Shown here one piece after another: positions 2,728-53,490 of a DNA stretch of 64,000 nt. The notes under the pieces are model-generated. The model was not told where the DNA came from, did not search any database, and saw nothing but the letters and a program-made list of their open reading frames with translations. Source of the DNA: Bacteroidota bacterium (GTDB lineage: Bacteria; Bacteroidota; Bacteroidia; Cytophagales; UBA9547); NCBI GenBank assembly GCA_033763735.1, contig JANRJY010000025.1, forward strand, positions 9,917-73,916, read 5' to 3'. Within the stretch, counting starts at the first letter, position 1; the number at the start of each line of letters is the position of its first letter. Both the position numbers and the translations under genes were made by a program.

Positions 2728-3125
2728 AGAATTGTTTTTTAGGGTATTGAATTAATATTTAATTAGAATTTAATACAAACATAATAATAAAAGTATACCA
2801 TCACAATTTTTTATACATTTTTTTTGAAACAAGGTTTAAATTTTAACGTAGTATTTCATTTTTTATACTTTTTTTGGAAATACATGTATTTTATTAATGT
2901 TTAATTACAAATATCATTATATGATAAAATAGGAATATTTAGTTGTTATTTCACAAAGAGATTATAATATGTAAAATATAATTGTTTCTTAGTAAAATAC
3001 AATCTGTTTAAGTATTTCTACTTATATGTATCACAAAAAATGTAATTATTTTAAACAAGTTGCTTTGATTATGCGTTTATATTAAATAGATTTGAATTAT
3101 AGAGTTTTTTTTAACCACCTTTTAC

Positions 3126-33670: not shown

Positions 33671-34210
33671 GTGGGGAACAGAAAAGTAATATTGTATATT
33701 TCGATGAGTTTAGACGGGTTTATTGCCCGTCAGAATGATGATATTGAATGGCTTTCATTGGTTGAAAAGAAAGGAGAGGATTATGGTTATAATGAATTCT
33801 ATAATACAATTGACACAGTAATCATGGGTCGTAGAACTTATGAAAAAGTGCTATCATTTGGAATAGATTTCCCGCATAGAAACAAAAAATGCTTTGTTTT
33901 TTCTTCTGCCAAAACTTTTATAGACCCATACGTAACATTTGTTGATCAATCTCCTGAAATTTGGCTTAAGAAGTATAAAACAACTGAAGGTGGCGATATT
34001 TACTGCGATGGTGGTGCTACATTGGTACACACTTTGCTGAAATATGGATTAATTGACGAAATGGTTATCTCAATAATACCAATTTTATTAGGCGAAGGCA
34101 AAAGATTGTTTTCCAGACATTTACCTGAAAATTCTGTAAAACTTATTAATTCTAATACCTTTGATACAGGTTTAGTACAGTTGACATATAAAATATTGAT
34201 TAAAAAATAA
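33671..34210 (+). CDS. Dihydrofolate-reductase-like (RibD C-terminal domain) NADPH-dependent reductase family protein
   Basis: A GTG start gives MGNRKVILYISMSLDGFIARQNDDIEW...VIMGRRTYE...YCDGGATLVHTLL, the typical RibD_C/DHFR-like layout. Confidence 0.7.
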   Translation: MGNRKVILYISMSLDGFIARQNDDIEWLSLVEKKGEDYGYNEFYNTIDTVIMGRRTYEKVLSFGIDFPHRNKKCFVFSSAKTFIDPYVTFVDQSPEIWLKKYKTTEGGDIYCDGGATLVHTLLKYGLIDEMVISIIPILLGEGKRLFSRHLPENSVKLINSNTFDTGLVQLTYKILIKK

Positions 34211-34290: not shown

Positions 34291-36315
34291 ATGAAAAATT
34301 CTAAAAATAAATCTTTAGAAAATAATACATCTTCCAATCTTGCCTCTTTACAACAAAGAGCCAATAATGATTTTTTTAGTTTTAATTTCGGCAATAAAGA
34401 AAAGTGGTTTATAGGAATTTCACTTTTACTATACTTTTCATTCATATTATTGAAATGGAATGGTTCATCAATTTCAGTATGGAATCAAATATTTGGAACC
34501 ATTCAAAACACTAAAAAAAGTGTAATTTTTGGAGAAGCAGTACCCATCAGACAAGATGAATGGATGGTTTATACACCCATGCTTTTAAACCAATACGAAA
34601 ATGGAATGAATGTTATAAATGAAAGTTTAGGAGAAGGTAATATAACATTACCTATTAATGTTCCAGTGAAACATTTTTCTATTTTTTTCAAACCCAACAT
34701 GATATTTTTTTTATTTCTTAATAAAGAACAAGGGTATTCTGCTTTTTGGAATTTCAAAATCTTTGGGATTATTATTTCTGTTTTTTTGTTTTTGAGTTGT
34801 CTAACTAAAAACAATTTTTTACTTTCCGTTTTTGGGGCATTTTGGGTGTATTTGTCTCCTGTTACACAATGGTGGTTTTCTACAAATATTCCGGAAATGA
34901 CTACATCATTTTGCCTTACATTCTTTTTTTTAATTCAGTTTATTAATTCTACGAAAAAATTACACTCTATTCTTTATTCGTTTGGTCTTGTATATTCCAT
35001 GTTTTTCTTTGCAATGCAATTATATCCGCCATATATGTTTCCCTTTGCCCATTTTGGAGTTTTTTTATTGATTGCAATTATTTTTGAAAAGAGAGAGTTA
35101 ATCAAATTGGTTTTTTTGGATAAGATCAAAATGATTAGCTTCATTTTTTTGACTATTATTTCAGGACTATTGTTTGCACTTTTTTTACAAGAAATGAAAA
35201 GTATTGTTGACACAATGTTACAAACGGAATATCCTGGAAAACGAGATTTTACTGGGGTAACCATTATATCTTATTTAGATGCATTTACAGCATACTTTGA
35301 TTTCTTTCATACTAAAACTAAATTTCCAATGTATCCCGGTAGTGGAAGTCAATCAGAAATAGCAGAGGCTTTATGGATATTTCCATTTGCTTTTTTTGGT
35401 GTCGTTTATAATGCCATTAGATATAAGACACACGATTATGTTTTATACGTTTTCCTGATTTATTTCATCTTTATTGTGCTATGGGTTTTTGTTGGTCTAC
35501 CTCCTTTTTTGTACAAAATTTTACTTTTAGATATGACTACCCCTGATCGAGGAAGTCAAATAATAGGAATTTGTGGAATCTTTATAACGATTATTTATAT
35601 ATCTAGAACGAGTAAAAATGCAAATATGAATACCTTTGCATCAATTATTTTTTCTATATTAATTTTTGTCTTTGTTGCATTTATTGGATATAAATCAAAT
35701 GAAGTTTTAAATAATTTTTTTACAAGTACTCAAATTTTAGTTGCTGCATTCTTAATCTCGTTATCAGGCTTTTGCATGTTTAATTTTAATAATATGTTTT
35801 TAAGATTTGGTTTTGTAGGTATTATTTTATTTATATCTTTCAAAAATATTGCCATAAATCCGATACAAGTTGGACTTTCTCCTATTACCAAAAATCCATT
35901 ATATGATAATGTAAAATCAATTTACCGTTTAAATCCTGATAAAGGTTGGATTGTTATGGGTAGTTCTATGGTAGCAAATTTCATAAGATGCACAGGAGCT
36001 AAAGTAATTAACGGTGTCAATTATATTCCTAATTACAAATATACGTCTGTATTGGACCCTGAAAATAAAAACAAAAAAGTTTACAACAGATATGCCCACA
36101 TTACATGTTATCCGTTTATTAATAATACAGATACCATTGCATTTACGCTTAATAATGCTGATGCATACTCAATGGGTATCGACCCTTCTTCTGAAAAACT
36201 CAAAAAAATAGGAGTGAAATATGTTGTTTTTACTTACGATCCCCAACCTATTGAGGTTAGAAATCTAGAACAAATCTCAAAAGATGGCATATCAATTTAT
36301 CAATTTAAAGACTAA
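34291..36315 (+). CDS. Large polytopic membrane protein with C-terminal soluble domain; uncharacterised GT-C-like family (paralog of 41730..43736)
   Basis: 674 aa. TM1 is followed by the loop KSVIFGEAVPIRQDEWMVYTP, many further TM helices, and a ~130-aa C-terminal domain (TGAKVINGVNY...NRYAHITCYPFINNTD...FTYDPQPIEVR). Confidence 0.5.
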   Translation: MKNSKNKSLENNTSSNLASLQQRANNDFFSFNFGNKEKWFIGISLLLYFSFILLKWNGSSISVWNQIFGTIQNTKKSVIFGEAVPIRQDEWMVYTPMLLNQYENGMNVINESLGEGNITLPINVPVKHFSIFFKPNMIFFLFLNKEQGYSAFWNFKIFGIIISVFLFLSCLTKNNFLLSVFGAFWVYLSPVTQWWFSTNIPEMTTSFCLTFFFLIQFINSTKKLHSILYSFGLVYSMFFFAMQLYPPYMFPFAHFGVFLLIAIIFEKRELIKLVFLDKIKMISFIFLTIISGLLFALFLQEMKSIVDTMLQTEYPGKRDFTGVTIISYLDAFTAYFDFFHTKTKFPMYPGSGSQSEIAEALWIFPFAFFGVVYNAIRYKTHDYVLYVFLIYFIFIVLWVFVGLPPFLYKILLLDMTTPDRGSQIIGICGIFITIIYISRTSKNANMNTFASIIFSILIFVFVAFIGYKSNEVLNNFFTSTQILVAAFLISLSGFCMFNFNNMFLRFGFVGIILFISFKNIAINPIQVGLSPITKNPLYDNVKSIYRLNPDKGWIVMGSSMVANFIRCTGAKVINGVNYIPNYKYTSVLDPENKNKKVYNRYAHITCYPFINNTDTIAFTLNNADAYSMGIDPSSEKLKKIGVKYVVFTYDPQPIEVRNLEQISKDGISIYQFKD

Positions 36316-36317
36316 AA

Positions 36318-37559
36318 ATGTATAAAGAAGTTAATGTTTGCCGAATTTGCGGTAACACAAAATTTGAACCTATAGTTTCTCTTGGTGTCCAATCACTTAC
36401 CGGTGTTTTTCCAAAATCTATTGACGATAAAGTTGATAAAGGTCCCCTTGATTTAGTACAATGTAAAGGAGATAATTCATGTGGATTAGTACAATTAAAA
36501 CATTCTTTTAGTCATGAAGAAATGTATGGAATGAATTATGGGTATAGATCAGGGCTAAACAAATCTATGGTTATGCATTTGTCCTCAATAACAAAGAAAG
36601 TTTCTCAAATTATTGAATTAAAAGACAATGATGTAATAATTGATATTGGAAGCAATGATTCAACCTTATTGCAATCATATGCCCAGGTAACAAAGGCAAA
36701 ACTTAATTTAATAGGAATTGACCCAACCGGAATCAAGTTTAAAAAGTATTACCCTGAAAATATTAATTTGATTGCTGACTTTTTTTCTGCAAATATCTTT
36801 AAAAAGGCTTATCCAAACAAAAAAGCTAAAGTTGTTTCTTCAATTGCAATGTTTTACGATTTAGAAGACCCTACTTCATTTATGGAGGACATTTATAATG
36901 TGTTATCTGACGATGGAATTTGGATATTTGAACAAAGCTATCTTTTAACCATGTTGGAAGTCAATGCATATGACACAATTTGTCATGAACATATCGAATA
37001 TTATGCAATAAGACAAATTGAATGGATGGCTAAAAAAGTTGGTTTCAAGCTTGTTGATATTATCTTAAATGATATCAATGGAGGAAGTTTTCAAATAATT
37101 TGCACAAAGGCTATAAATAATAATATTAAATCAAGCAGTAATTTGGACAAATTAATAATCAATGAGAATGACAACCTTCATAAACTTTTGATTAATTATA
37201 AAATACAGGTTGAAAATCATCGTAATGAATTAATAAAATTATTAACCAAACTTAAAACTGAAGGCAAAAAAGTATTTGGTTATGGGGCCTCCACAAAGGG
37301 AAATGTTATATTACAATATTGCGGCATTGATAAAAATTTGATGCCTTACATCGCAGAAGTAAATGAAGATAAGTTTGGATCTTTTACACCAGGCACTCTA
37401 ATTCCAATTATCTCTGAAAATGAAGCAAGAGCATTAAAACCGGATTATTTCCTGGTTTTACCTTGGCATTTTAGAGCAGGCATTTTAGAAAGAGAAAAAG
37501 AGTTTTTAAAAAATGGAGGTAAATTCATTTTTCCATTGCCAAAAATTGAAATAGTTTGA
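36318..37559 (+). CDS. Zinc-ribbon SAM-dependent methyltransferase of the NDP-hexose C-methyltransferase (TylCIII-like) architecture
   Basis: N-terminal CRIC...C....C Cys cluster, a class I SAM fold (VIIDIGSNDSTLL), and a C-terminal domain (VFGYGASTKGNVILQYCG...YFLVLPWHF) typical of Methyltransf_13/14-type enzymes. Confidence 0.6.
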   Translation: MYKEVNVCRICGNTKFEPIVSLGVQSLTGVFPKSIDDKVDKGPLDLVQCKGDNSCGLVQLKHSFSHEEMYGMNYGYRSGLNKSMVMHLSSITKKVSQIIELKDNDVIIDIGSNDSTLLQSYAQVTKAKLNLIGIDPTGIKFKKYYPENINLIADFFSANIFKKAYPNKKAKVVSSIAMFYDLEDPTSFMEDIYNVLSDDGIWIFEQSYLLTMLEVNAYDTICHEHIEYYAIRQIEWMAKKVGFKLVDIILNDINGGSFQIICTKAINNNIKSSSNLDKLIINENDNLHKLLINYKIQVENHRNELIKLLTKLKTEGKKVFGYGASTKGNVILQYCGIDKNLMPYIAEVNEDKFGSFTPGTLIPIISENEARALKPDYFLVLPWHFRAGILEREKEFLKNGGKFIFPLPKIEIV

Positions 37560-38509
37560 TGAGAAAAACTGCTTTAATTGTTGGATTTACTGGACAAGAT
37601 GGTCAAATTCTATGGAAGTATCTTGAAAATTTAGGTTACAATTTAATAGGTATTTCAACAAACAAAATAATTTCGAACTATTATAGTCTAAATCACTCTA
37701 ATTTTAATATAAGTTCTGAATCAGATATTAAATCATTGATTTCAACTATATATATTGATGAAATATACTTTCTTGCAGCTGTGCACCAATCTTCTACTGA
37801 CGTACTTGATAACGAATTAGATTATTTTAGGAAAAGTAATGAAGTAAATTTTGTATCTCCAAGTACAATTCTTTCTTGTATTTTTAACTATTCAAAAAAG
37901 ACCAAATTTTTTTATGCTTCATCTTCTCACATTTTTAGAGGCTCAGTACAAACGCCACAAAATGAAGAAACAAAACCAGTTCCGTTGTGTATATACGGAA
38001 TTACAAAAACTTCTGGTACTTATATTACTCAGTACTTTGCAAATAAAGGTGTATTTGCTTCTGTGGGAATCTTATATAATCACGAGTCAATTTTTAGAGA
38101 TCGAAAATTCGTTTCACAAAAAATTATAAAAGGAGCAGTTGCAATCAAAAAAGGACTTTTAGATTCATTAACTTTGGGCTCATTGGATGCTAAAATTGAT
38201 TGGGGTTATGCACCTGATTTTGTAAAGGCTTATCATATGATCTTAAATATTTCAAAGCCAGATACTTTTATTATAAGTACATATAAGCTGACATCTATTG
38301 CTGATTTTGTAGAAGAAACCTTTAATCAGCTCGGACTGGACTGGAGAAAATATATTAAAATTGACAGTGAAATCATAAAGAAAGGCTTACAAAACAATCT
38401 TTTAGGAGATCATTCTAAGCTAAAAAATATGACTGGATGGTATCCTGAAACCACTTTTTCTGAAATGATTAAAATATTATTAGATTATGAACTTAGCAAC
38501 AATGGATAA
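37556..38509 (+). CDS. Gmd-family extended SDR (GDP-sugar 4,6-dehydratase/reductase-like)
   Basis: ALIVGFTGQDGQILWKYL (GxTGQDG), YGITK (YxxxK) and LYNHESIFRDRKFVSQKI. The usual T-S-E catalytic segment reads SSSHIF. The start overlaps the upstream stop (ATGA). Confidence 0.6.
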   Translation: MMRKTALIVGFTGQDGQILWKYLENLGYNLIGISTNKIISNYYSLNHSNFNISSESDIKSLISTIYIDEIYFLAAVHQSSTDVLDNELDYFRKSNEVNFVSPSTILSCIFNYSKKTKFFYASSSHIFRGSVQTPQNEETKPVPLCIYGITKTSGTYITQYFANKGVFASVGILYNHESIFRDRKFVSQKIIKGAVAIKKGLLDSLTLGSLDAKIDWGYAPDFVKAYHMILNISKPDTFIISTYKLTSIADFVEETFNQLGLDWRKYIKIDSEIIKKGLQNNLLGDHSKLKNMTGWYPETTFSEMIKILLDYELSNNG

Positions 38510-39242
38510 TTTATCAGAAATTCTTGTAGCAATTCCAACATATAATGAAGCTGAAAATGTCAAAAAATTATTTGAACAAATTTTTAAACTCAATTTCAAG
38601 AAAGATATTTTGTTTTTGGATGACAACTCTCCGGATGGAACAGGTGAAATAATTAAAATGATCCAATCAGAAAATAAAAATGTTTTTGCTATACATAGAA
38701 TAGGTAAGCTTGGAATTGGTAGTGCTCATCAAGAAATCATTAATTTTGCATATCAAAAAGGATATAAAATTCTTGTTACAATGGATTGTGATTTTACACA
38801 TTCCCCATCATCAATAATTGACTTCATTAATAACTCCGACAATTATGATGTAGTAGTAGGTTCAAGATATATGAAAAAAGATAGTCTCAAGGACTGGAAT
38901 CTAATCCGAAAATTTTTAACCAATTTTGGCCATATACTAACAAAGTATGTTTTAAATTTGAAAGAAGATGCAACAGGAGCCTTTCGATTATACAAATTAA
39001 ATAATATTCCAAAGCAACTTTTCTCATTAGTTGAGTCAAAAAGCTATTCTTTTTTCTTTGAAAGTCTGTTTATTATTTCCTTCAATAAATTTAAAATAAA
39101 AGAAATACCTATAGATTTGCCTTCACGTACTTATGGAAATTCAAAAATGGAAATAAAAGATGTTATTAAGAGTTTAAAATATTTGTATTTATTATTAATG
39201 AGAAAATATTTTAACAGGCAGTCCTTAATAATCAAGAATTAA
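38502..39242 (+). CDS. GT2 polyprenol-phosphate glycosyltransferase (DPM1/ArnC-like)
   Basis: ILVAIPTYNEAENV, FLDDNSPDGTGEII, VTMDCDFTH and VVVGSRYM match the dolichyl/undecaprenyl-phosphate sugar synthase layout. An alternative start lies at 38487. Confidence 0.65.
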   Translation: MDNLSEILVAIPTYNEAENVKKLFEQIFKLNFKKDILFLDDNSPDGTGEIIKMIQSENKNVFAIHRIGKLGIGSAHQEIINFAYQKGYKILVTMDCDFTHSPSSIIDFINNSDNYDVVVGSRYMKKDSLKDWNLIRKFLTNFGHILTKYVLNLKEDATGAFRLYKLNNIPKQLFSLVESKSYSFFFESLFIISFNKFKIKEIPIDLPSRTYGNSKMEIKDVIKSLKYLYLLLMRKYFNRQSLIIKN

Positions 39243-39243
39243 T

Positions 39244-39927
39244 ATGGCACTAACTTACGAACAAATAGAACAAGATTGGGAGATTTACTGGGGAGCTCAA
39301 GGTAAACCCACCAGTAAAACATATGATTTAATCGCAGAGTTTTACAGAAGAAATATTATTATTAAAATTCTGAATCATTTCTTAAAAAAACATTATAAAG
39401 AGCATGAAAATGTTTTGCATGCCGGATGCGGAAGTGGACAAGTTGATTTAGATGCTAATATTTACTTGAATATTACAGCTCTTGACATATCATCAAAAGC
39501 GCTTGAAATTTACAAAAAAGTTAATCCTTCTAATAAAAAAACAGTAAAGGGAACAATTTTTGATTTGCCGTTTGAAGACAACTCTTTTGATGGAATTTAT
39601 AACCTTGGAGTTATGGAACACTTTACTGAAGAAGAAATTCAACTGATCTTGAAAGAATTCAAAAGAGTAGTCAAAAAAGAAGGTAAGATTATTTTATTCT
39701 GGCCTCCTACCCGTGGAATCACTGTTAATTTCTTAGACTCAGTACATTTTATTTGTAATAAGATATTTCAAATGAATGTTAAACTCCATCCCGATGAGAT
39801 TACAAGAATCAGATCCAAAAAACATGCTCAAGAAATTATCGAAAAATCTGGAATGAATTTGATTGACTATTATTTTGGCATTAAAGATATATTCACTCAA
39901 GCAGTTATAGTTGCTCAAAAAAAATAG
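39244..39927 (+). CDS. Class I SAM-dependent methyltransferase
   Basis: VLHAGCGSGQVDL (motif I), DGIYNLGVMEHF and GKIILFWP. Confidence 0.7.
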   Translation: MALTYEQIEQDWEIYWGAQGKPTSKTYDLIAEFYRRNIIIKILNHFLKKHYKEHENVLHAGCGSGQVDLDANIYLNITALDISSKALEIYKKVNPSNKKTVKGTIFDLPFEDNSFDGIYNLGVMEHFTEEEIQLILKEFKRVVKKEGKIILFWPPTRGITVNFLDSVHFICNKIFQMNVKLHPDEITRIRSKKHAQEIIEKSGMNLIDYYFGIKDIFTQAVIVAQKK

Positions 39928-39935
39928 GCTTTGTT

Positions 39936-41717
39936 ATGAATTTGGACAAAAAAAATAAACTAAGCAATATACTTCCTTCTGTATTTGTTGCAATAGTAAT
40001 AATTAGTTTCAGCTTTAGTTTGTTTAAGAATATTTCTTACCCATTGCTTTGGAATGATGAAACTGATGCAGCTATGTGGTCAACCAGAATAATGGAGTTT
40101 GGCTATCCTAAAGTTCATGATGGTAAAAACAAAGTATTTTTAGTATATGCCCCAAATATGAAAATGGGCTATAAAAAGGAACATGATGCATATATTTATA
40201 TAACTTGGGGTGGGTATTATTTTGCGGTAATTGGAGAATTTCTTTCAAAATTTACAAACGACATTTATGTTAAAACGGCTTTAATGCGCATTCCTTTCGC
40301 TTTGGCCGGTTTTATTGGTATTATTTTGATGGTGTTATCGATCAAAGACTTTTTCCTCCAAAATCGAACATTACTTTGGTTAGCAATCATATTTGGTATT
40401 TTTGAAATTTTATCCATATCACTTGTATTACACATGCGAGAAGTACGATATTTTTCTTTAGTAATCTTTTTTACAGGAATATTGTTTTTTATATTTTTTA
40501 GGTTTCAGCTTCTTAATAAAATGTCATTAATCGCTTATAGTATTGCAATGACTATCTTGTTATTCTTAACATTCAATACTAATTTTATAGTTTTTGCAAT
40601 TTTTGTTGGAACAATTGGATTTTATCAATTCATTTTATTTTTATTTCAATTTAAAAATGGTAAATCATTTGACAAAAAATCAGGTAATACTGAATCATGG
40701 AAAGTCAGAATCATAAATCTATTTATTCAATATATACCTTTGTTTATTTCTATATTGTTGGCAATTCCACTGATTTCTTATTTTGAAATAATTGAATCAT
40801 CTGCTGAATTGTCAAAATTCAAAAATTTCAATTTAAATCTTTATTTTTCAAATCTTTCAAGTGTGTTAAAATACTTTACTAAACTTGAATATCTATATCT
40901 GGCAATCGTTGTCAAAATTATTCTTTTATTAACTTTTTTAACCGTAAAAAAATCTATATCCGAAAAACCAACCAAAAACAAAGAAAATGAAATTGTAATT
41001 ACTAAAATTCCATTTACAATCAATTATAAAATAATGGTTTCAAATTTTATGTTATTATTTATTTTAATTTATGCGCTTATTAATTGTCGATTACCATATT
41101 TTTATGTGCGCCATTTTATTGTATTACAACCTGTAATGTCACTTATGATGGTATTGGATATTTTTATTGTTTTTCAAATTTTTAATGAAAATGTTAAAAA
41201 AACCAGTATAACTTTTTCAAAAGCACTAATTTCTTTTGTCATTATTATTGCGTTTGCAGTTAACACAGGTAACAAATTAAAATATATTAATTTGCACTTA
41301 TATGAACTAACTCATCAATATAAAGGAGTGCTTGATTATATTATTCCCTATATTAAGGAAAACTATAAAAACCCTGAGAAACTAACAATTGCTACGAATT
41401 ATGAAGAATTAGCTTATATGTTTTACTTAAAATCTAAAACTACAATAGGTTTTATTAAAAATAATTTAGAAGAAGACAAAAAATATCAACCTGATATTAT
41501 TATTTACAGAAGAGGTTGGGGTTGGCAAAATGACCAAAATATTTTTAATGATTTCTTTCAAAAAGCCAAATACAAACCCATACAATTTCCGGTAGTGGAT
41601 TTCTATGTGAATAATATGCCAGAAATAAATGAAAAAGATCCGGTTACACATCAGTTTAAGACATTAACAACGAATGACCCTAATCAGATGATGACAATAT
41701 ATGTTAAAGAAGATTAA
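39936..41717 (+). CDS. Polytopic GT-C glycosyltransferase, ArnT/PMT_2 (GT39/83)-like
   Basis: 593 aa. TM1 is followed by YPLLWNDETDAAMWSTRIMEFGYP (DE...A..S..M..G as in ArnT-type enzymes), many TM helices, and a ~130-aa C-terminal soluble region. Confidence 0.55.
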   Translation: MNLDKKNKLSNILPSVFVAIVIISFSFSLFKNISYPLLWNDETDAAMWSTRIMEFGYPKVHDGKNKVFLVYAPNMKMGYKKEHDAYIYITWGGYYFAVIGEFLSKFTNDIYVKTALMRIPFALAGFIGIILMVLSIKDFFLQNRTLLWLAIIFGIFEILSISLVLHMREVRYFSLVIFFTGILFFIFFRFQLLNKMSLIAYSIAMTILLFLTFNTNFIVFAIFVGTIGFYQFILFLFQFKNGKSFDKKSGNTESWKVRIINLFIQYIPLFISILLAIPLISYFEIIESSAELSKFKNFNLNLYFSNLSSVLKYFTKLEYLYLAIVVKIILLLTFLTVKKSISEKPTKNKENEIVITKIPFTINYKIMVSNFMLLFILIYALINCRLPYFYVRHFIVLQPVMSLMMVLDIFIVFQIFNENVKKTSITFSKALISFVIIIAFAVNTGNKLKYINLHLYELTHQYKGVLDYIIPYIKENYKNPEKLTIATNYEELAYMFYLKSKTTIGFIKNNLEEDKKYQPDIIIYRRGWGWQNDQNIFNDFFQKAKYKPIQFPVVDFYVNNMPEINEKDPVTHQFKTLTTNDPNQMMTIYVKED

Positions 41718-41729
41718 TTATTAAAACAA

Positions 41730-43736
41730 ATGTCTTCGATTAAAAAAAAAGATACTAAAATTATTTCAATAGAGAATGCGAAACCTGAATTGAAGGGTAA
41801 TCTTATAATATTTGACCGTAAAGTCAAAATATTCATTTCTGTTTGCTTCATCGCATTTTTTATATGTGTTTTATTTAAATTACATGGATCTTCAATAGGG
41901 ATTTGGGATTCAATAACAGGAAATACAAGTCTTAAAAATAAAAGCGTAATCTTAGGAACACCAAAAAGTATTCGCTCAGATGAATGGCTTGTTCAGACTC
42001 CTTTTTTAATTTCTCAATTTAACAGAAAATTTTCAAATGAAAACGAATCATGGGGCGCATATAATTCACCTGTGGCAATGGGTGGCCCCGCAAATGATTT
42101 AACATCACATATTAAATTAAATTACCTTGGGTTTTATTTATTTAACATTGAGTACGGTTATTCCTTTTATTGGAATTTTAAAATTTATTTTCTCTTAATA
42201 TCCTCATTTCTGCTTTTTATGTTGCTTACTAAAAACAACTTTTGGTTGAGCATTTTTGGCTCTTTTTGGCTTTATTTGTCGAGTGGAGTTCAATGGTGGT
42301 TTTCAACAAGTCTGCCGGAAATGCTTATTTCTTTATGTATCATTACGACTTCTTTATTATATTTATCCTATGCAAAAAATCTTTTTCACATTATAATATC
42401 CTCTGTTTCAATACTCTTGTTTTCTTGGGTTCTTGTTTTTCATATTTATCCTCCTTTTCAATTATTAACTTTTTATACTATCGTAGTTTTATTCTTGGTT
42501 TTACTTTTAATGTATTGGGATAAAATTCTTTTTCGCAAAAATATTTATCTAAAAATATGTATATGTCTCGTTATTTTATCAATTGATATTTTATTGATTT
42601 ACTTTTTTTATATCGATACCAAACAAACTATTGAAATTGTTCAACAAACTATTTACCCAGGTCAAAGATTAGTTGATCATGCAAACTTTACCTGGTCAAG
42701 ATTTTTTGTCAATTTTTTTGATGTATTCTTAAATGAAACAAAGTTTCCTAACTTAAATGTTTGGTACAATATTTGTGAAAGTAGTGGATTTTTAATGCTT
42801 TTTCCTTTTATTATTCCTGCAATAGTATTTCAACAAATCAGAAAAAAAGCTATTGATTACACTTATACTATCATTTTATCATTAATTTTTTTGCTTACGT
42901 TTAGTTGCTTTGTTGAATTACCTGATTTTTTATATAAAATAACTTTATTAAGCATGATTTCATCCGTAAGATGCCATCTTTTTGTTGGATTTTTAAGTTT
43001 AGTTCTAACGATTTACTTTTTAAATGACATTTCTAAGAATTCAAAATTTACAAATCTGGAAAGGGTAATAACCATATCAATTGCTGCTTTAATTTATCTC
43101 TCAATTTATTTAAATATTAAAGAAATTTTGGATCAGTATATCACTGGAAATCAATTTATTATTGCTTTAATATTAATTTTAATTCTGACTAGTCTGACTT
43201 TGTTTAATTTTAAATTCAGAGAATTAGTTTTTGTTGGCATAATAATCTTATTCCTTTCTTCTAATTTATTGGTTAATCCAATAACCAAAGGTCTTGGCCC
43301 CATATTAAATAATCCGCTCTATAAACAAGTGAAAAATTTAAATAATCAAAATTCGAAATGGGTTGTGTTCGGACAAATGACTTTTTCAAATTTTATCAAA
43401 ACTACCGGTGCAAAAGTGATAAGTGGCGTAAATTATACTCCTGAGAAAGAAAAGTTAGATATTCTAGATTCAAAAAATCAATTTCAGCACATACACAATA
43501 GATATGCTCATATTTCATTTTATCCTTTTATTAACGGAACTGATTCTGTAGCTTTTGTTTACGATGGGAATAAATTTACAGATTCTTATACTATAGCCAT
43601 GGACCCTTGTTCTCCAAAACTAAAAGCATTAGGGGTACAATATTATTTTTTTACTTATCAACCACAACCAGCAGAAGTAAGGTGTCTTGATTTGGTAGAC
43701 CAAAATCCATTTCCAATATACAAACTAAAAGACTAA
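41730..43736 (+). CDS. Large polytopic membrane protein with C-terminal soluble domain; paralog of 34291..36315
   Basis: 668 aa. Shares with 34291: GSSIxxW, KSVIxGxPxxIRxDEWxVxTP, LTKNNFxLSxFGxFWxYLSxxxQWWFST, YPP, TxYPGxR, LPxFLYKIxLL, VNPIxxGLxPIxxNPLY, TGAKVIxGVNY, NRYAHIxxYPFIN and FTYxPQPxEVR. Confidence 0.5.
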   Translation: MSSIKKKDTKIISIENAKPELKGNLIIFDRKVKIFISVCFIAFFICVLFKLHGSSIGIWDSITGNTSLKNKSVILGTPKSIRSDEWLVQTPFLISQFNRKFSNENESWGAYNSPVAMGGPANDLTSHIKLNYLGFYLFNIEYGYSFYWNFKIYFLLISSFLLFMLLTKNNFWLSIFGSFWLYLSSGVQWWFSTSLPEMLISLCIITTSLLYLSYAKNLFHIIISSVSILLFSWVLVFHIYPPFQLLTFYTIVVLFLVLLLMYWDKILFRKNIYLKICICLVILSIDILLIYFFYIDTKQTIEIVQQTIYPGQRLVDHANFTWSRFFVNFFDVFLNETKFPNLNVWYNICESSGFLMLFPFIIPAIVFQQIRKKAIDYTYTIILSLIFLLTFSCFVELPDFLYKITLLSMISSVRCHLFVGFLSLVLTIYFLNDISKNSKFTNLERVITISIAALIYLSIYLNIKEILDQYITGNQFIIALILILILTSLTLFNFKFRELVFVGIIILFLSSNLLVNPITKGLGPILNNPLYKQVKNLNNQNSKWVVFGQMTFSNFIKTTGAKVISGVNYTPEKEKLDILDSKNQFQHIHNRYAHISFYPFINGTDSVAFVYDGNKFTDSYTIAMDPCSPKLKALGVQYYFFTYQPQPAEVRCLDLVDQNPFPIYKLKD

Positions 43737-43741
43737 CTTAA

Positions 43742-44674
43742 GTGAATATTGCTGTAATTATACCTTGTTATAAAGTAGAAAATCATATTGAAAATGTTAT
43801 TAATACATTACCCAGTATAATAACTTATATTATTGTAGTTAATGATTGTTCTCCTGACAATACTAAATTGATTCTTAATAAAATAGGTACAACAAATAAT
43901 AAAGTTATTTACTTAGAACATACGCAGAATCAAGGTGTAGGGGGGGCAATGAAAACAGGGTTTGTAAAAGCCTTAGAACTTAATGCTGATATTATTATTA
44001 AACTTGACGGGGATGGTCAAATGAACCCAAAATATATTCCAGAATTTATTAAACCAATTATCGAAGGGAAAGCAGATTTTACCAAAGGGAATAGGTTCAG
44101 AAATTACCGAACCATTCAAAGAATGCCTATTATAAGACGCATTGGAAATTTAGGATTGAGCTTTTTAACAAAAGCAGCCTCAGGTTATTGGAATATTTTT
44201 GATCCTACGAACGGTTATTTCGCTATGAATATAACCACACTTAAGCTAATAAATCTTGAAACGCTTCATAACCGTTATTTTTTTGAAAGTTCGTTGTTAA
44301 TTGAAATGTATCATAGTGATACAGTTATTCAAGATATTCCTATCGATGCTCAGTATGGAGAGGAGATTTCAAATTTGTCTGTAACAAAAACATTATTTGA
44401 ATTCCCACCAAAATTATTCTTAGCTTTCATTAAAAGAATTTTATTCAAATATTTTCTATATGATTTTAATATAGCTTCAATTTATATAATGTTAGGTTTT
44501 CCAATATTTACATTGGGTGCTTGGTATGGTTTAATCAATTATATTAAATACACTCATTTACATATTGTAGCTCCGACCGGTACTGTAGTTATTCCAACTT
44601 TGCTCATTACTTTGGGATTTCAGTTAATACTTTCAGCAGTTAATTTTGATGTATCCAATTATCCAAAAAAATAA
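43742..44674 (+). CDS. GT2 bactoprenol-phosphate glycosyltransferase (GtrB/ArnC-like) with C-terminal TM helices
   Basis: GTG start. IAVIIPCYKVENHI, VVNDCSPDNT, KLDGDGQMNP, and two C-terminal hydrophobic helices (IYIMLGFPIFTLGAWYGLI, VVIPTLLITLGFQLILSAV). Confidence 0.7.
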   Translation: MNIAVIIPCYKVENHIENVINTLPSIITYIIVVNDCSPDNTKLILNKIGTTNNKVIYLEHTQNQGVGGAMKTGFVKALELNADIIIKLDGDGQMNPKYIPEFIKPIIEGKADFTKGNRFRNYRTIQRMPIIRRIGNLGLSFLTKAASGYWNIFDPTNGYFAMNITTLKLINLETLHNRYFFESSLLIEMYHSDTVIQDIPIDAQYGEEISNLSVTKTLFEFPPKLFLAFIKRILFKYFLYDFNIASIYIMLGFPIFTLGAWYGLINYIKYTHLHIVAPTGTVVIPTLLITLGFQLILSAVNFDVSNYPKK

Positions 44675-44711
44675 TAAAGTAATTATTTAAAACTTTACCA
44701 AATTGAATAAA

Positions 44712-45422
44712 ATGGAAATATCTGATTTACCGGTATTATTATTAGCAGGGGGTAAAGGAACCAGAATACAACATTTACTCAATGATTTACCAAAGCCGAT
44801 GTATCCTGTATTCAACAGACCATTTTTGGACTATCAAATTGATTATTTGTTAAAATTTGGGTTTCAAAATTTTTATATTTCTACTGGTTATCAAGGTCAT
44901 GTAATTGCAAACTATTACCGAAATAATAAAAATATCAATATAATTCACGAGACTCAGCCACTTGGCACTGGAGGAGGCATTTTATTTGCGATGTCAAAAA
45001 TCAAAGAGCCTAATGTAATTGTTCTAAATGGTGACACACTTTATTTATTAGATTTTTTTTCTTTTGTCAATCATGCATTAAACAACCCATTACACACATG
45101 TATAGCTTTGAAAACTGTTGTTGACTCCACTAGATACGGTACAGTAATATTAGATAACTTTAATAAAATAACCCATTTTATTGAAAAAGGGAAAAGCAAC
45201 ACCGGACCTGGATTAATTAATGCGGGAATATATTATTTGAACAAGCAACAAATCTTAAATTATAGTTTTCCTGAAATATGCAGTATTGAAGAAACCATTT
45301 TTCCCAAAATAATAGAATCAGGTATTTATGGATTTAAGGCTCATAATGAATTTATTGATATTGGCACCCCAGAAACATTACATGAAATAGAAAATTTTGT
45401 CAAAGTAAACAACCTAATATAG
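44712..45422 (+). CDS. hddC: Sugar-1-phosphate nucleotidylyltransferase, D-glycero-alpha-D-manno-heptose-1-phosphate guanylyltransferase-like
   Basis: LLAGGKGTRIQHLLNDLPKPM (GxGTR), LGTGGGI and LNGDT, with a size of about 236 aa. The track ORF uses a TTG at 44703. Specificity is inferred from the neighbouring hddA/gmhA. Confidence 0.6.
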   Translation: MEISDLPVLLLAGGKGTRIQHLLNDLPKPMYPVFNRPFLDYQIDYLLKFGFQNFYISTGYQGHVIANYYRNNKNINIIHETQPLGTGGGILFAMSKIKEPNVIVLNGDTLYLLDFFSFVNHALNNPLHTCIALKTVVDSTRYGTVILDNFNKITHFIEKGKSNTGPGLINAGIYYLNKQQILNYSFPEICSIEETIFPKIIESGIYGFKAHNEFIDIGTPETLHEIENFVKVNNLI

Positions 45423-46262: not shown

Positions 46263-47249
46263 ATGATTATTTCAAAAACACCACTTAGAATAAGCTTTTT
46301 TGGCGGAGGCACTGATTACCCCGATTATTTTAAACAATATGGGGGCGCAGTTTTATCAACTTCAATTAATAAATACGTATATATCTCAGTAAATCAAATA
46401 TCTGCAATTTCTGAATATAAATACAAAAATACATATTCAAAAGTTGAACAAGTACAAACTATAGACGAAATCATTCATCCTTCTGTTAGGGAATGTTTGC
46501 GATACATGAAAATTAATGATGGTCTTGAAGTACATACAATCAGTGATTTACCTGCAAAAACAGGGTTAGGATCTTCTTCTTCGTTCACTGTGGGACTGCT
46601 AAATGCTTTGCATGAGTATCAAAACACAAAAAGAACTGCTTTGGAACTGGCTAAGGAAGCAATATATGTAGAGCAAAAATTAATAGGTGAAAAAGTAGGT
46701 GTTCAAGATCAAAGTGCTGCTGCTGTTGGGGGGCTTAATTATTTTGAGTTTAATACAGATGAATCAATCTCCTATAAGCCGGTACCCATATCAAAAGAAA
46801 GAATTGTTGCTTTTAAAAATCATATGTTACTTTTTTATACAGGTGTGCAAAGATTTGCAGAGGATGTATTAAAAGAACAAATTGAAAAAACAAAAACAGG
46901 GGAAGTAAAGCAAGATCTTGCTTCCATTCGAAAAATGGTAGATAAAGGATATGAAATTCTCACTTCAAATAGTTCTCTTTTGGAGTTCGGAAAACTTTTG
47001 GATGAAGCCTGGAAACTTAAAAAGAACTTATCATCTTCAATTTCAAACAATTACCTGGATGAAATGTATAATACTGCAATTAATGCCGGAGCCTCTGGAG
47101 GAAAACTATTAGGAGCTGGCGGAGGTGGATTTTTTCTCTTTTTTGCAGATCCATCTAAACACATTGAAATTCGAAAAGCATTAAATCAATATCAAGAAAT
47201 CCAATTCGATTTTGATAATGATGGAAGTAAAATCATATTCGTACACTAA
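46263..47249 (+). CDS. hddA: GHMP sugar kinase, D-glycero-alpha-D-manno-heptose-7-phosphate kinase-like
   Basis: TPLRISFFGGGTDYPDY, PAKTGLGSSSSFTVGL (GHMP motif II) and GGKLLGAGGGGFFLFF (motif III). Confidence 0.7.
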   Translation: MIISKTPLRISFFGGGTDYPDYFKQYGGAVLSTSINKYVYISVNQISAISEYKYKNTYSKVEQVQTIDEIIHPSVRECLRYMKINDGLEVHTISDLPAKTGLGSSSSFTVGLLNALHEYQNTKRTALELAKEAIYVEQKLIGEKVGVQDQSAAAVGGLNYFEFNTDESISYKPVPISKERIVAFKNHMLLFYTGVQRFAEDVLKEQIEKTKTGEVKQDLASIRKMVDKGYEILTSNSSLLEFGKLLDEAWKLKKNLSSSISNNYLDEMYNTAINAGASGGKLLGAGGGGFFLFFADPSKHIEIRKALNQYQEIQFDFDNDGSKIIFVH

Positions 47250-47261
47250 ATTAACTTAAGA

Positions 47262-48182
47262 ATGAAAAAAATATTTGATTACATAGTCTCGAAAAGTTTT
47301 GATATGGTATATTTTTTTACTGATAAAATGGGTATATTTTATTATATTTCCCCTTTTTTTACGAAATTAAATGAATTAATTCATCTTTCGAATACGATTT
47401 TTGTAAGAAATCTTATAAAAAAACAATCAAAAAACAACAATATAATTGCTCCCAATGTAAATAATTCTTTGGAAAACACGGGTGGAATCAAAATTAGTGA
47501 AGAACAAATTATTGAAAAAATTAACTCAAAAGTTTTAATTGGCTCTAAACCTTCAAGGTTAGCTAATTTTGAAGGAGTGGCTTTAGATGATGCTTTGAGC
47601 TATAAGTATGAATGGAGACACTTAAGTTTTTACCCAATAACGAAAGCAATTGATGCCATTTCTAAAAAATATTTAAAAATCAATCATTTCAGTTTGTTAG
47701 AATTGGGATGTGGAGCTGGAAGTATATTTGAATTTTTAAAATACAATGATTGCAAAGAGTATTTAGGATTAGATGCTAATATTATTGCGTTAAAAAACAG
47801 CCCTTACATAAAAGGATTTGAGAGTAATTTTAAGGAGGTGAATTTAGATCAAGAAATTAATTTTCAATATAAATTTGATATTATTATTTCATTTGAGGTT
47901 CTGGAACATTTAAAAAAAACCACTATACCAAACATTTTAAAAACAATAAAAAATCACATGCATGATAATTCAATATTTTTAGGTACGGCCTGTCTTAGAG
48001 AAATGGAAGTGCATTTGACAGTTGAGTCAAAAACTTGGTGGTTAAAACAATTCGAAGAAGCAGGATTAATACCACATCCTAAGGAAAAGGAAATTATTGA
48101 AATTTTACAAGATCATCACCCTTATAATTGGAATCTAGCTACATCAATATTGTTTGCAATGGTTAAAAAAAATGATAATTAA
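47262..48182 (+). CDS. SAM-dependent methyltransferase (C-terminal class I fold) with an uncharacterised N-terminal region
   Basis: LLELGCGAGSIFEFL (motif I) and FDIIISFEVLEHL. Confidence 0.6.
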   Translation: MKKIFDYIVSKSFDMVYFFTDKMGIFYYISPFFTKLNELIHLSNTIFVRNLIKKQSKNNNIIAPNVNNSLENTGGIKISEEQIIEKINSKVLIGSKPSRLANFEGVALDDALSYKYEWRHLSFYPITKAIDAISKKYLKINHFSLLELGCGAGSIFEFLKYNDCKEYLGLDANIIALKNSPYIKGFESNFKEVNLDQEINFQYKFDIIISFEVLEHLKKTTIPNILKTIKNHMHDNSIFLGTACLREMEVHLTVESKTWWLKQFEEAGLIPHPKEKEIIEILQDHHPYNWNLATSILFAMVKKNDN

Positions 48183-48555
48183 ATTTATTTCATATTTGGT
48201 ACTTTTTTCTCTTTCCGCAGCAGGTTCAACTACATTAATGGGAGACAAAGACATGTTAGCCGGAAATTTGTTATCTAAAGAAGGAATTTTAACTTTGATC
48301 ATGAATTGGAGATTTTATTTAGCAATTTTTTTAGCTATTTTGAGCAGATTCACCTTTGTTCTTATGAATAGTGAACTTTTAAAAATAGAATATACGCGAA
48401 ATAACGCGACAAATATTACTACAATTGTTTCGATTGCTTCAATAATTGTGGTCTTTTTTTCAAACTATATATTTTTGAATGAATGGCTTACATCAAAGCA
48501 ATTTGTTGGTTCAGTTATTATCTTATTTGGAGTTTGGCTAGTTTTAACAAGATAA
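48172..48555 (+). CDS. Small four-helix DMT/EamA-half membrane protein, ArnE/ArnF- or GtrA-type lipid-linked sugar flippase candidate
   Basis: About 127 aa with four hydrophobic helices and the EamA-like C-terminal helix FVGSVIILFGVWLVL. The ATG at 48172 overlaps the upstream gene by 11 nt. The track ORF uses a TTG at 48154. Confidence 0.5.
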   Translation: MIIKFISYLVLFSLSAAGSTTLMGDKDMLAGNLLSKEGILTLIMNWRFYLAIFLAILSRFTFVLMNSELLKIEYTRNNATNITTIVSIASIIVVFFSNYIFLNEWLTSKQFVGSVIILFGVWLVLTR

Positions 48556-48565
48556 ATACAAAATT

Positions 48566-49774
48566 ATGAAATGTAGAGTATGTGATTCTGAACACTTAGA
48601 GTTAGCAGTGGATTTAGGAAACCAACCTTGGTGTAACAATTTTCTTAAAAAAGAAGAAATAGGTAAGGAGCCTTATTATCCACTTAGATTAATGTATTGC
48701 CACGATTGTGCTACAACACAACTTGATTATACCGTTAAAAAGGAAATAATGTTTGGCGATCACACTTATCTATCAGGCGTTACCAAATCGTTATCTGCTC
48801 ATTTTGAGCGCATAGCAAAGGAAACCGATGAATTATTTTGTAAAGGTAAAAATGAGAAATGGGTTTTGGATATTGGCTCAAATGATGGTACTCAGCTAAA
48901 ACATTTTTTAAAATTAGGATACAATGTGGTGGGGGTCGAATCTTCTAAAACCACCGCAAAAATGGCAAATGATGCAGGCGTATATACCATTAACGAATAC
49001 TTTAATGAAGATTTAATCAATAAATATAACTTTAAAGAAAAGTTTGATTTATTCAATGCCGCTGGAGTTTTTTTTCATTTAGAAGAACTCCATTCTGTGA
49101 CTCGAGGCATTAAAAAAGGGCTTAAAAAAGAGGGGGTTTTTGTTGTTCAGTTTTTGTATATGAAGCGAATTGTAGAAAACTTAGCTTTTGATCAAATATA
49201 TCACGAACATCTACTCTATTATACTCTTAAAACTATTGAAGTCCTTTTGAATAGACATGGCTTAAGTATGTTTGATGCTTACGTTGACCCAATTCATGGA
49301 GGTTCAGTTATTGGCTATATAACACACAAAGAAGCCAATAAACCAGCATCTGATCGACTACAAATATTAAGAGAGGAAGAAGAAAAGGATAAAATCAATG
49401 AATTTTCAACCTATGTAGAGTTTGCAGAAAGAATTAAAAAAATGAAGGAAGAAAATCTAAAATATTTGACTTCAGCGAAAAAAGCAGGGAAAAGAATTTG
49501 GGGAATGGGAGCACCTGTCAAAGGCAACACAATGCTTAATTATTTTGGTGTTGGAACTCAATACATTGATTTTCTTGTTGAAAAGAATAAACTGAGAAAA
49601 GGATTATATTCACCTGGCCAACATATTCCAATAGTTATTGAGGAAGAACTAACGGAATTGCCGGATATATATTATGGTTTAGCGTGGAACTTCAAGAAGG
49701 AGATTTTGGCAAATAACCAAGATTTAATTAAAAAAGGAGTAGAATTTTACTTTCCAGTAAATCCTAAAGAATAA
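48566..49774 (+). CDS. Zinc-ribbon SAM-dependent methyltransferase of the NDP-hexose C-methyltransferase architecture (paralog of 36318..37559)
   Basis: CRVC...C..C Cys cluster, VLDIGSNDGTQL, and a C-terminal domain IWGMGAPVKGNTMLNYFG...YYGLAWNF. Confidence 0.6.
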   Translation: MKCRVCDSEHLELAVDLGNQPWCNNFLKKEEIGKEPYYPLRLMYCHDCATTQLDYTVKKEIMFGDHTYLSGVTKSLSAHFERIAKETDELFCKGKNEKWVLDIGSNDGTQLKHFLKLGYNVVGVESSKTTAKMANDAGVYTINEYFNEDLINKYNFKEKFDLFNAAGVFFHLEELHSVTRGIKKGLKKEGVFVVQFLYMKRIVENLAFDQIYHEHLLYYTLKTIEVLLNRHGLSMFDAYVDPIHGGSVIGYITHKEANKPASDRLQILREEEEKDKINEFSTYVEFAERIKKMKEENLKYLTSAKKAGKRIWGMGAPVKGNTMLNYFGVGTQYIDFLVEKNKLRKGLYSPGQHIPIVIEEELTELPDIYYGLAWNFKKEILANNQDLIKKGVEFYFPVNPKE

Positions 49775-49776
49775 AA

Positions 49777-50703
49777 ATGAATATTTTAGTAACTGGGGCA
49801 ACGGGGTTTCTTGGACAATTTCTAATTCAAAAATTAGAAGCTGAGGGCCATAATGTTGTAAAAATAAATTCAAAAAACGCAGATTTAACAACGCAAGTAT
49901 CACTGAATAATTTTAATTCAGTAAAATACGACCTAATTTATCACTTGGCTGCATGGACGCAGGCAGGTGATTTTTGTCTGTACCATCCAGGTGAACAATG
50001 GGTTATAAATCAAAAAATCAACACTAATGTTTTAGGCTGGTGGTCAGAATTTCAACCGCAGTCAAAATTTATAAGCATGGGTACAAGTTGTTCCTATGCT
50101 CCTGAAAATCAACTTATTGAAAAAAATTATTTATTAGGCGAACCAATTGATAGTTTGTATACATATGCACATACTAAAAGAATGTTACAAATAGGGCTTC
50201 AGTCTTTAAATAAACAATATGGCCTTAAATATCTAACTGTAGTGCCTTCTACTTTGTATGGTGAAAGTTATCATAATGATGGCAGACAAATGCATTTCAT
50301 ATTTGATTTAATAAGAAAAATTATCAGAGGAAAAGAATTTGGAGAAGAGGTTATATTATGGGGAGATGGATTCCAAAAAAGAGAACTTATTTATGTCAAA
50401 GATTTTGTAGAAGCCCTATATTTTTTATCAGGTATTTCAGAAAATGAAATTATCAATATAGGTGGAGGCAAAGAGTATACAATTCGTGAATTCGCAGATT
50501 CAATTTGCAATATTGTTGGATATGATCATTCTAAAATTATATATGACACATCAAAATATACAGGTGCAAAATCAAAATTTTTGTCAATTGAAAAATTAAT
50601 GAAAATTTATCCAAAATTCAGTCAAATATCACTTGAATCAGGTTTAAGAAAAACTATAGATTGGTTTTATACTTCCAAAGCGTATTTACCCCCAAGTAAT
50701 TAA
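49777..50703 (+). CDS. GDP-L-fucose-synthase-like SDR (NDP-4-keto-6-deoxy sugar 3,5-epimerase/4-reductase family)
   Basis: ILVTGATGFLG, MGTSCSYAPE (compare GSSCIYP in Fcl/GMER) and YAHTK (YxxxK). Confidence 0.6.
   Translation: MNILVTGATGFLGQFLIQKLEAEGHNVVKINSKNADLTTQVSLNNFNSVKYDLIYHLAAWTQAGDFCLYHPGEQWVINQKINTNVLGWWSEFQPQSKFISMGTSCSYAPENQLIEKNYLLGEPIDSLYTYAHTKRMLQIGLQSLNKQYGLKYLTVVPSTLYGESYHNDGRQMHFIFDLIRKIIRGKEFGEEVILWGDGFQKRELIYVKDFVEALYFLSGISENEIINIGGGKEYTIREFADSICNIVGYDHSKIIYDTSKYTGAKSKFLSIEKLMKIYPKFSQISLESGLRKTIDWFYTSKAYLPPSN

Positions 50704-51380: not shown

Positions 51381-53490
<2,110 letters not shown>

Follow-up and report, generated by a model that had tools for sequence, protein, structure and literature searches.

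Two candidate C-methyl-sugar cassettes at the GDP-sugar level, probably heptose-linked, in a surface-glycan operon of an uncultured Bacteroidota bacterium

Sugar C-methyltransferases of the TylC3/TcaB9 type are represented by TcaB9, KijD1 and MtmC, which are encoded in actinomycete antibiotic clusters and act on dTDP-linked 2,6-dideoxyhexoses. In Gram-negative bacteria, a related step has been proposed for virenose in Coxiella burnetii, where a TylC3-like methyltransferase and an Fcl-like GMER with Cys109 and His179 would process a GDP-level 4-keto intermediate (PMC3539893), and this pathway was still biochemically uncharacterised and unresolved as of 2026 (PMC13252051). Again, 3-C-methyl-rhamnose (evalose) occurs in the O-antigens of Burkholderia andropogonis and Azorhizobium caulinodans (PMC7203242), and no gene tied to evalose in either species was found in the literature. 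The capsular heptose pathway of Campylobacter jejuni comprises HddA, GmhA, HddC, Cj1427, Cj1430, Cj1428 and O-methylation by Cj1426. Cj1427 is a GDP-heptose C4-dehydrogenase that makes GDP-4-keto-heptose, and a published account of the heptoses of C. jejuni makes no mention of C-methyl heptose (PMC10680097); Cj1426 is a heptose O-methyltransferase with genetic evidence (PMC3546167). In this study, we investigated a stretch of 64,000 nucleotides from a Bacteroidota bacterium (assembly GCA_033763735.1, contig JANRJY010000025.1, positions 9,917 to 73,916; hereafter the window), in which two methyltransferase genes of the TylC3/TcaB9 type, MT1 (36318-37559) and MT2 (48566-49774), each stand directly upstream of a short-chain dehydrogenase/reductase (SDR).

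Our best explanation, which we hold as a whole with somewhat more confidence than doubt, is that positions 31686-52322 form one surface-glycan operon of this uncultured bacterium, with two C-methyl-sugar cassettes acting at the GDP-sugar level. The operon consists of 20 tightly packed genes on the plus strand, which overlap or are separated by gaps of a few bases, and it is flanked by tsf on one side and, on the other, by a minus-strand gene with a weak Wzy_C match followed by a TolC-like gene. Apart from the two methyltransferase/SDR pairs, it contains GmhA, HddA-like and HddC-like genes, three GT2 glycosyltransferases, two ordinary class I methyltransferases, and a set of membrane proteins (one small EamA-type, two with DUF7657/DUF7654, one of 593 amino acids and one weakly PMT_2-like). 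Because these C-methyltransferase-type pairs stand in an operon that would also make GDP-heptose, their products are likely methyl-branched sugars, perhaps with a branched heptose among them. For the MT2 cassette, homology and context are observed and the chemistry is predicted; the MT1 cassette is the less certain of the two. An NCBI protein from a metagenome-assembled genome (MAG) of a Bacteroidota bacterium matches MT1 with 100% identity, and gliding-motility genes, which the window shares with the closest relative locus, agree with the Bacteroidota origin.

The proteins were examined by profile searches against Pfam and NCBIfam (with its curated equivalog cutoffs), structural relatives were taken from the PDB, and relative loci fetched for comparison (L001, L058 and so on) were mapped by tblastn. 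The initial annotation had described both open reading frames as three-part enzymes of the TylCIII-type sugar C-methyltransferase family with 4-keto-sugar enzymes as partners, and this description was borne out. Both MT1 and MT2 consist of a PF08421 zinc ribbon, a class I methyltransferase domain binding S-adenosylmethionine (SAM), and PF08484, the C-terminal domain of C-methyltransferases (E 8e-48 in MT1 and 1.7e-48 in MT2). Again, each can be aligned over its whole length with three 3-C-methyltransferases of solved structure, namely MtmC (4rv9; E 2.5e-49 for MT1, 2.4e-63 for MT2), TcaB9 (3ndi) and KijD1 (5t64), the latter two at about E 1e-38 to 1e-50. Beyond these three, the PDB search gave no further relative except a weak UbiG match to the SAM domain. 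The cysteine, SAM and GxGAxxKG motifs that had been quoted are present in both proteins: MT1 carries C8-x2-C11 ... C49-x5-C55, DIGSNDST and GYGASTKG, and MT2 carries C3-x2-C6 ... C45-x2-C48, DIGSNDGT and GMGAPVKG, the spacer of the second cysteine pair having five residues in MT1 instead of two. The two proteins are 29% identical over their full length, and only 26-30% identical to the characterised 3-C-methyltransferases. Judged by these alignments, MT1 and MT2 belong to the TylC3/TcaB9-type sugar C-methyltransferase fold. They share with TcaB9, KijD1 and MtmC/TylC3 the three domains, the Cys4 site, the SAM motif xIGxNDG, Glu224-His225 and Tyr78, and differ from these antibiotic-cluster enzymes in lying in a Gram-negative surface-glycan operon, where the context points to GDP and mannose or heptose. 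The annotation had also cautioned that this architecture includes O- and N-methyltransferases; we found no characterised example, and the full-length relatives in the PDB are the three C-3 methyltransferases. Cj1426, the heptose 6-O-methyltransferase of C. jejuni, was considered as a relative, since a shared architecture would have favoured O-methylation. It was located in the C. jejuni loci fetched via Cj1427, where the published Cj1426 primers enclose a gene that lies after Cj1427 on the one side and next to hddA on the other, and was rejected, being a 280-residue FkbM-type protein of a different fold; it also lacks similarity to MT306 (306 residues), one of the ordinary methyltransferases of the operon.

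The active sites were compared in an alignment of 240 relatives and the three solved enzymes (245 sequences in all), using the TcaB9 literature numbering, which equals the chain index minus 2 and was consistent at all five residues checked. The zinc ligands Cys13, Cys16, Cys54 and Cys57 were found in MT1, MT2 and 238-240 of the 240 relatives, with two MT2 relatives gapped at Cys13 and Cys16, and Tyr78, Glu224 and His225 were invariant (245/245). Each clade also displays a signature of its own. All 120 members of the MT1 clade have Asp for His181 and Cys for Tyr222 and keep Tyr76, and the same signature was noticed in a 42% relative; all 120 members of the MT2 clade have His for Tyr76 and keep His181 and Tyr222. 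The verrucomicrobial heptose-linked relatives keep the canonical Tyr76, His181 and Tyr222. These three are reportedly among the sugar-binding residues named by the Holden laboratory; Asp181/Cys222 and His76 are treated here as unexplained clade signatures, possibly related to a different nucleotide and sugar.

MT2 (48566-49774) is separated by 2 nucleotides from the gene of an Fcl-like SDR, 'FclL' (49777-50703, plus strand), a predicted epimerase/4-reductase. The top NCBIfam match of this SDR is GDP-L-fucose synthase, at 148.5 bits, below the NF047922 cutoff of 500. It keeps the catalytic residues of GMER, namely Thr (at Ser107), Cys109, Tyr136, Lys140 and His179, in nine of nine members (the window and eight MT2-adjacent relatives), with TYA(M/H)TK conserved among these SDRs. 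The genes around this pair point to heptose. GmhA, the sedoheptulose-7-phosphate isomerase (50802-51380), scores 277.5 bits against NF001628 (cutoff 265); the HddA-like GHMP kinase of the D-glycero-D-manno-heptose 7-phosphate kinase type (46263-47249) and the HddC-like sugar-1-phosphate guanylyltransferase (44703-45422) have HddA and HddC as their top NCBIfam matches, at 175 and 136.6 bits, below the cutoffs of 600 and 300; all three are on the plus strand. The operon would thus encode a GDP-D-glycero-D-manno-heptose pathway. The last gene of the operon (51387-52322, plus strand) matches Cj1427 (PDB 6vo6) with E 1.1e-128 over residues 3-310 at 62% identity, and would be the only keto-forming enzyme of the locus, its function being taken from Cj1427. 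Compared with the virenose proposal, a Gmd start and a 6-deoxyhexose are replaced here by a Cj1427-type dehydrogenase acting on heptose as the predicted source of the keto sugar for MT2. In contrast to the window, the C. jejuni pathway uses a cupin epimerase and an FkbM-type O-methyltransferase, and no TylC3-like enzyme was found in its loci L005-L009.

This cassette is widely distributed. MT2 adjoins an Fcl-like SDR in nine of the ten loci examined, the window counted, and is 92% identical to its homologue in another Bacteroidota-type contig and 72-75% identical to those of Nostoc, Crocosphaera, Snowella and Synechocystis. The latter is an unusually high identity across phyla, between a Bacteroidota MAG and many cyanobacteria. 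Among the relative loci, L001 carries HddA, a small membrane protein, a TylF-type methyltransferase, MT2, the Fcl-like SDR, HddC and a Cj1427 homologue; L141 carries DUF7657, two GT2 genes, a Cj1427 homologue, HddA, an MT306 homologue, MT2 and the SDR; and in L142, GmhA, GmhB, a Cj1427 homologue, MT2, the SDR and HddA are encoded by overlapping genes. Nostoc sp. FACHB-110 (L004) harbours a gene of the NTP-transferase family, which is HddC-like in Pfam only, then HddA, a pair of FkbM-type methyltransferases, MT2, the SDR, GmhA and GmhB. Again, Cj1427 led to 53 genome loci, and in four of them (three of Verrucomicrobiota, one of Methylomirabilota) a Cj1427 homologue, HddC and HddA are followed by an adjacent Fcl-like SDR and a 40-42% MT2 relative. 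As a lead only, slr1610 of Synechocystis PCC 6803, whose mutant has altered exopolysaccharide, is a possible relative.

The partner of MT1 is a Gmd-derived SDR, 'GmdL' (37556-38509, plus strand). MT1 starts 2 nucleotides after the upstream membrane-protein gene, and each of the two methyltransferases is translationally coupled to its downstream SDR. The initial annotation gave the 2-nucleotide gap after MT2 correctly, whereas the ATGA overlap it described after MT1 is in fact TTGATGA, in which the stop TGA (37557-37559) shares one base with the likely SDR start, ATG at 37559; the alternative start, TTG at 37556, would give a four-base overlap. The SDR matches PF16363 with 187 bits and has its closest relatives among genuine GMDs (1n7g, E 2.8e-47), scoring 179.1 bits against TIGR01472 (Gmd), below the equivalog cutoff of 415. 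The catalytic residues of P. aeruginosa GMD are Thr126, Glu128, Tyr150 and Lys154 (PMC3539893). In the SDR after MT1, the alignments showed Ser-Ser-His in place of the GMD Thr-Ser-Glu, with the Tyr and Lys kept. The same change of Glu to His was observed in the SDRs after MT1 homologues of a Bacteroidetes, a Deltaproteobacteria and a Proteobacteria MAG; it is present in L058-L060 and, counted over the MT1 loci, in 18 SDRs that immediately follow an MT1 homologue. No canonical Gmd or other 4,6-dehydratase was detected in the 64-kb window, where the best tblastn match of P. aeruginosa GMD is the His-type SDR itself; an SDR at 20196-21194 was considered as the missing Gmd and rejected as GalE-like.

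MT1 homologues were compared in 84 loci, including 80 fetched metagenome loci, in which Gmd-like open reading frames were classed by position and motif. Of the 67 metagenome or genome loci that were informative, 31 have a homologue of the window's Gmd-like SDR as the gene immediately after the MT1 homologue. Out of 33 Gmd-like SDRs in this position, only two have the Glu, and in the other 31 it is replaced by His (18), by Met or Leu together with Tyr..Arg (7), by Leu (4) or by Arg (2). A general base cannot be substituted by Leu, Arg or Met, and the presence of these residues in this slot is the reason why we read it as a 4-ketoreductase step, best regarded as filled by a Gmd-derived paralogue. 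A canonical Gmd (Thr/Ser-x-Glu, about 200-490 bits to P. aeruginosa GMD) is adjacent upstream in 15 loci and lies elsewhere on the same strand in 12, and the complete trio of Gmd, MT1 and Glu-less SDR, in that order, was found in L070, L083, L093 and L116. With the canonical Gmd upstream and the Glu-less paralogue downstream of the methyltransferase, the SDR would fill the reductase and not the dehydratase slot; we therefore predict it to be a GDP-4-keto-sugar 4-reductase, possibly an epimerase/reductase. The order of many MT1 loci resembles the Gmd/Rmd pathway of GDP-D-rhamnose, as expected for a GDP-3-C-methyl-6-deoxyhexose; unlike in that pathway, the SDR that follows MT1 resembles Gmd more than it does the solved Rmd 2pk3, and the window is without Gmd. 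A second type of Gmd-derived SDR, of about 295 residues, was also noticed after MT1 homologues (L086 7236-8114, L096 1555-2445, L100 4481-5368, L130 5274-6158 and L133 1341-2243), with Met or Leu at the Glu position and Arg for the Lys of Tyr-x3-Lys. The idea that such short 'SAM / Tyr..Arg' SDRs are true Rmd orthologues was rejected, as they score 145 bits with GMD and 87 bits with Rmd 2pk3, and being nearer to GMD they are termed Gmd-derived only.

These findings modify the earlier description of the locus. Its overall scheme, in which a keto group is formed, a carbon is methylated and the keto group is reduced, fits, its placing of each gene directly upstream of a Gmd-like (PF16363) or Fcl-like SDR is correct, with a pairing that recurs in related loci as counted above and is not due to chance, and its mention of heptose was apt. 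Contrarily, its use of the Gmd-like SDR as the dehydratase is opposed by the loss of Glu, the low TIGR01472 score and the upstream Gmd of related loci; since no 4,6-dehydratase is found in the window, the predicted '6-deoxy' character has no basis within the locus; and the heptose C4-dehydrogenase context had been missed.

Downstream of the MT1 cassette lies GT2a (38487-39242, plus strand), predicted to be a polyprenyl-phosphate glycosyltransferase. Among proteins of solved structure it is most similar to Dol-P-Man synthase (5mlz, E 1.4e-20), which depends on GDP-mannose, and next to ArnC. GT2a homologues occur in 20 of the 84 MT1 loci, mostly right after the MT1 cassette and also in other phyla. 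The next gene encodes MT227 (39244-39927, plus strand), a small class I methyltransferase and conserved partner of GT2a, presumed to carry out O-methylation. The run of MT1, Gmd paralogue, GT2a and MT227 was also found in L058, in L062 with one extra open reading frame before MT227, and in L064 for the first three genes only. After this run, the window carries a 593-residue polytopic membrane protein (39936-41717, plus strand), a candidate polyprenyl-P-sugar transferase without a Pfam match, and a 45% homologue follows the same module in L058. In five loci, MT227 is fused to GT2a (L087 7740-9389, L095 5067-6506, L102 7137-8726, L110 6045-7523 and L129 4912-6600); the fusion links the functions of GT2a and MT227. 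Together with a small EamA-type membrane protein (48154-48555, plus strand), a candidate polyprenyl-P-sugar flippase subunit by analogy with ArnE/F that has a homologue in L001, GT2a and the large membrane proteins suggest that the modified sugars are loaded on polyprenyl phosphate and transferred outside the cytoplasm. In its GT2a match, small EamA-type protein and large polytopic proteins, the operon is similar to the Dol-P-Man/GT-C and ArnC, ArnE/F and ArnT systems; unlike in those systems, its putative transferases (the DUF7657/DUF7654 and 593-residue proteins) had no solved relatives in the PDB search.

With reference to the chemistry, MT2 would most likely C-methylate GDP-4-keto-heptose. 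The Cj1427 homologue would oxidise C4 of GDP-heptose to give GDP-D-glycero-4-keto-D-lyxo-heptose, the Glu-His dyad of MT2 would form the C3/C4 enolate, and the methyl group of SAM would pass to carbon, most likely C3 by analogy with TcaB9, KijD1 and MtmC, with C5 as the alternative. The Fcl-like SDR could then epimerise the product (at C5, if C3 is quaternary) and reduce C4, leading to a GDP-C-methyl-heptose that retains O6. MT1, on the other side, would most likely C-methylate a GDP-4-keto(-6-deoxy)-mannose-type sugar that is next loaded onto polyprenyl phosphate. By family behaviour, its substrate would be GDP-4-keto-6-deoxy-D-mannose, with gmd lying outside the window, and the alternative would be the 4-keto-heptose of the Cj1427 homologue. 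The Glu-less Gmd paralogue would reduce C4, the Dol-P-Man-synthase-like GT2a would put the sugar on polyprenyl phosphate, and the large membrane proteins of the operon would transfer it at the outer face of the inner membrane. In this model, a step like that of actinomycete TylC3/TcaB9, and like the one proposed for virenose in Coxiella, is combined with heptose chemistry known from C. jejuni. In its specific form, namely that the Cj1427 homologue, MT2 and the Fcl-like SDR make GDP-C-methyl-heptose and that the MT1 clade and the Glu-less Gmd paralogue are the missing pair for GDP-3-C-methyl-6-deoxyhexoses such as D-evalose, this proposal is tentative, and we find the two parts together slightly harder to believe than to doubt. 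No report of a C-methyl heptose in any glycan was found in the searchable literature.

A number of observations weigh against this interpretation, and several of them lend themselves to other explanations. The residues exchanged in MT1 (181 and 222) and MT2 (76) throughout their clades are conserved in all three solved enzymes, and the Glu-His base would also suit O-methylation. Similarly, the five high-GC metagenome loci with GT2a-MT227 fusions have the fusion directly after MT1 with no SDR between or nearby, Synechocystis sp. LKSZ1 has a 72% MT2 homologue alone (L002 8001-9203), with no sugar genes by it and with a PF00124 psbA-like photosystem reaction-centre family gene and a CsoS1D-like gene as neighbours, and L004 of Nostoc has no Cj1427 homologue within 8 kb. 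The clade signatures, the fusions, the lone LKSZ1 homologue and the missing C4-dehydrogenase of Nostoc would all agree with MT1, MT2 or both methylating a hydroxyl group (or an amine), be it on a GDP-sugar, on a polyprenyl-P-sugar or on the completed glycan, SDR adjacency then indicating a shared pathway only. We nevertheless regard this as unlikely: all full-length relatives of solved structure methylate C-3 of 4-keto sugars, the Glu-His dyad does not vary, O-methylation could be left to the two ordinary class I methyltransferases that the operon already contains, and Cj1426, the known O-methyltransferase for heptose, differs in fold. Moreover, the position between keto-forming and keto-reducing enzymes is kept across phyla, which we infer to be a requirement of C-methylation via an enolate and not of O-methylation.

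Other difficulties concern genes missing from the window and the origin of the keto sugar for MT1. Neither a GmhB-like gene nor a canonical gmd is present in the 64-kb window, so both activities would have to come from elsewhere in the genome; GmhB was likewise not detected by the tblastn map in the C. jejuni capsule loci L005-L009. In about two-thirds of the loci with a His-type SDR, no canonical Gmd was found within the fetched DNA, and for this reason the His-type SDR may still dehydrate. It could accordingly be a working GDP-mannose or GDP-heptose 4,6-dehydratase with a His base, perhaps also reducing, through which the locus would make 6-deoxy-3-C-methyl hexoses or heptoses unaided. Its closeness to genuine GMDs, the retention of the Ser, Tyr, Lys and the NHES...R nucleotide-binding region, the capability of His to act as a general base, the pair in L059 that opens its cluster with no other SDR nearby, and the mention of bifunctional GMDs in PMC3539893 are in line with this. 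On the contrary, the Glu is replaced, in other loci by Leu, Arg or Met, which are not bases; the canonical Gmd stands upstream and the variant downstream of the methyltransferase in the four trio loci; and the score is far under the TIGR01472 cutoff, making a dehydratase unlikely in our judgement. A somewhat better case, though still an improbable one, can be made for MT1 and its SDR using the GDP-4-keto-heptose of the Cj1427 homologue, in which event the operon would make two different C-methyl heptoses and no 6-deoxy sugar. The operon is co-oriented and tightly packed, it has a single activation route (HddA/HddC/GmhA) and a single keto-forming enzyme, and the window is without gmd. Against this, the partner of MT1 across the 84 loci is Gmd, with Gmd-like open reading frames in 60 loci and HddA in 1, GmhA in 2 and HddC in 5, and GT2a resembles a GDP-mannose-dependent synthase. 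We keep to the interpretation in which MT2 acts on a keto-heptose and MT1 on a mannose-type keto sugar.

The remaining genes of the operon are also on the plus strand. The two DUF7657/DUF7654 membrane proteins are paralogues of about 670 residues and 37% identity: paralogue a (34291-36315) has its stop 2 nucleotides before MT1, and paralogue b (41730-43736) is followed by GT2b (43742-44674), a second GT2 family glycosyltransferase of 310 residues. The order DUF7657, GT2b, GT2c is shared with L141, where DUF7657 lies at 2305-4281. These proteins may be uncharacterised glycosyltransferases that use polyprenyl-P-sugar. MT306, the class I methyltransferase at 47262-48182, has a homologue upstream of MT2 in L141 as well, and a RibD_C/DHFR-like reductase gene of 179 residues (33671-34210) lies between the PMT_2-like membrane protein and paralogue a. 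At the end of the operon, the minus-strand gene at 52309-53490 encodes a 393-residue polytopic protein with a Wzy_C/O-antigen-ligase match of 24.7 bits, below the cutoff; it is convergent with the operon, sharing 14 nucleotides with the Cj1427-like gene. About 8-10 kb past the operon, a formyltransferase-domain protein (60227-60814) and a WbqC-like protein (62172-62798) may belong to another sugar-modification pathway, such as that of N-formyl or N-acyl amino sugars. Outside the window, two clusters of related Bacteroidota with the MT1 or MT2 modules (L001 2777-6438 and L058 1537-5367) contain an SDR-GT2 fusion of about 655 residues beside transketolase-like genes, which are split into N- and C-terminal halves in L001 and present as a single Transket_pyr gene in L058, and which hint at one more pathway for a branched-chain sugar or another unusual one, absent from the window.

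C-methyl-branched sugars are known chemically in Gram-negative glycans; for instance, Coxiella has virenose, H. pylori has 3-C-methyl-mannose, and 3-C-methyl-rhamnose occurs in Burkholderia and Azorhizobium. To our knowledge, no GDP-level methyltransferase for them has been characterised. The candidate GDP-sugar C-methyltransferases described in this study fall into two large clades with sharp limits, each accompanied by a conserved partner of its own, and they provide concrete pairs for testing. The Glu-less Gmd paralogues matter for annotation, because automated pipelines may call them GDP-mannose dehydratases. The MT2 cassette is widespread, from close homologues in Bacteroidota and many cyanobacteria to more distant ones in Verrucomicrobiota and Methylomirabilota, and its occurrence in culturable cyanobacteria makes the prediction directly checkable. 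In summary, our data suggest that MT1 and MT2 are parts of GDP-sugar, probably heptose, C-methyltransferase cassettes, and the heptose-linked clade, if the prediction is true, would stand for a so far unreported class of sugars.

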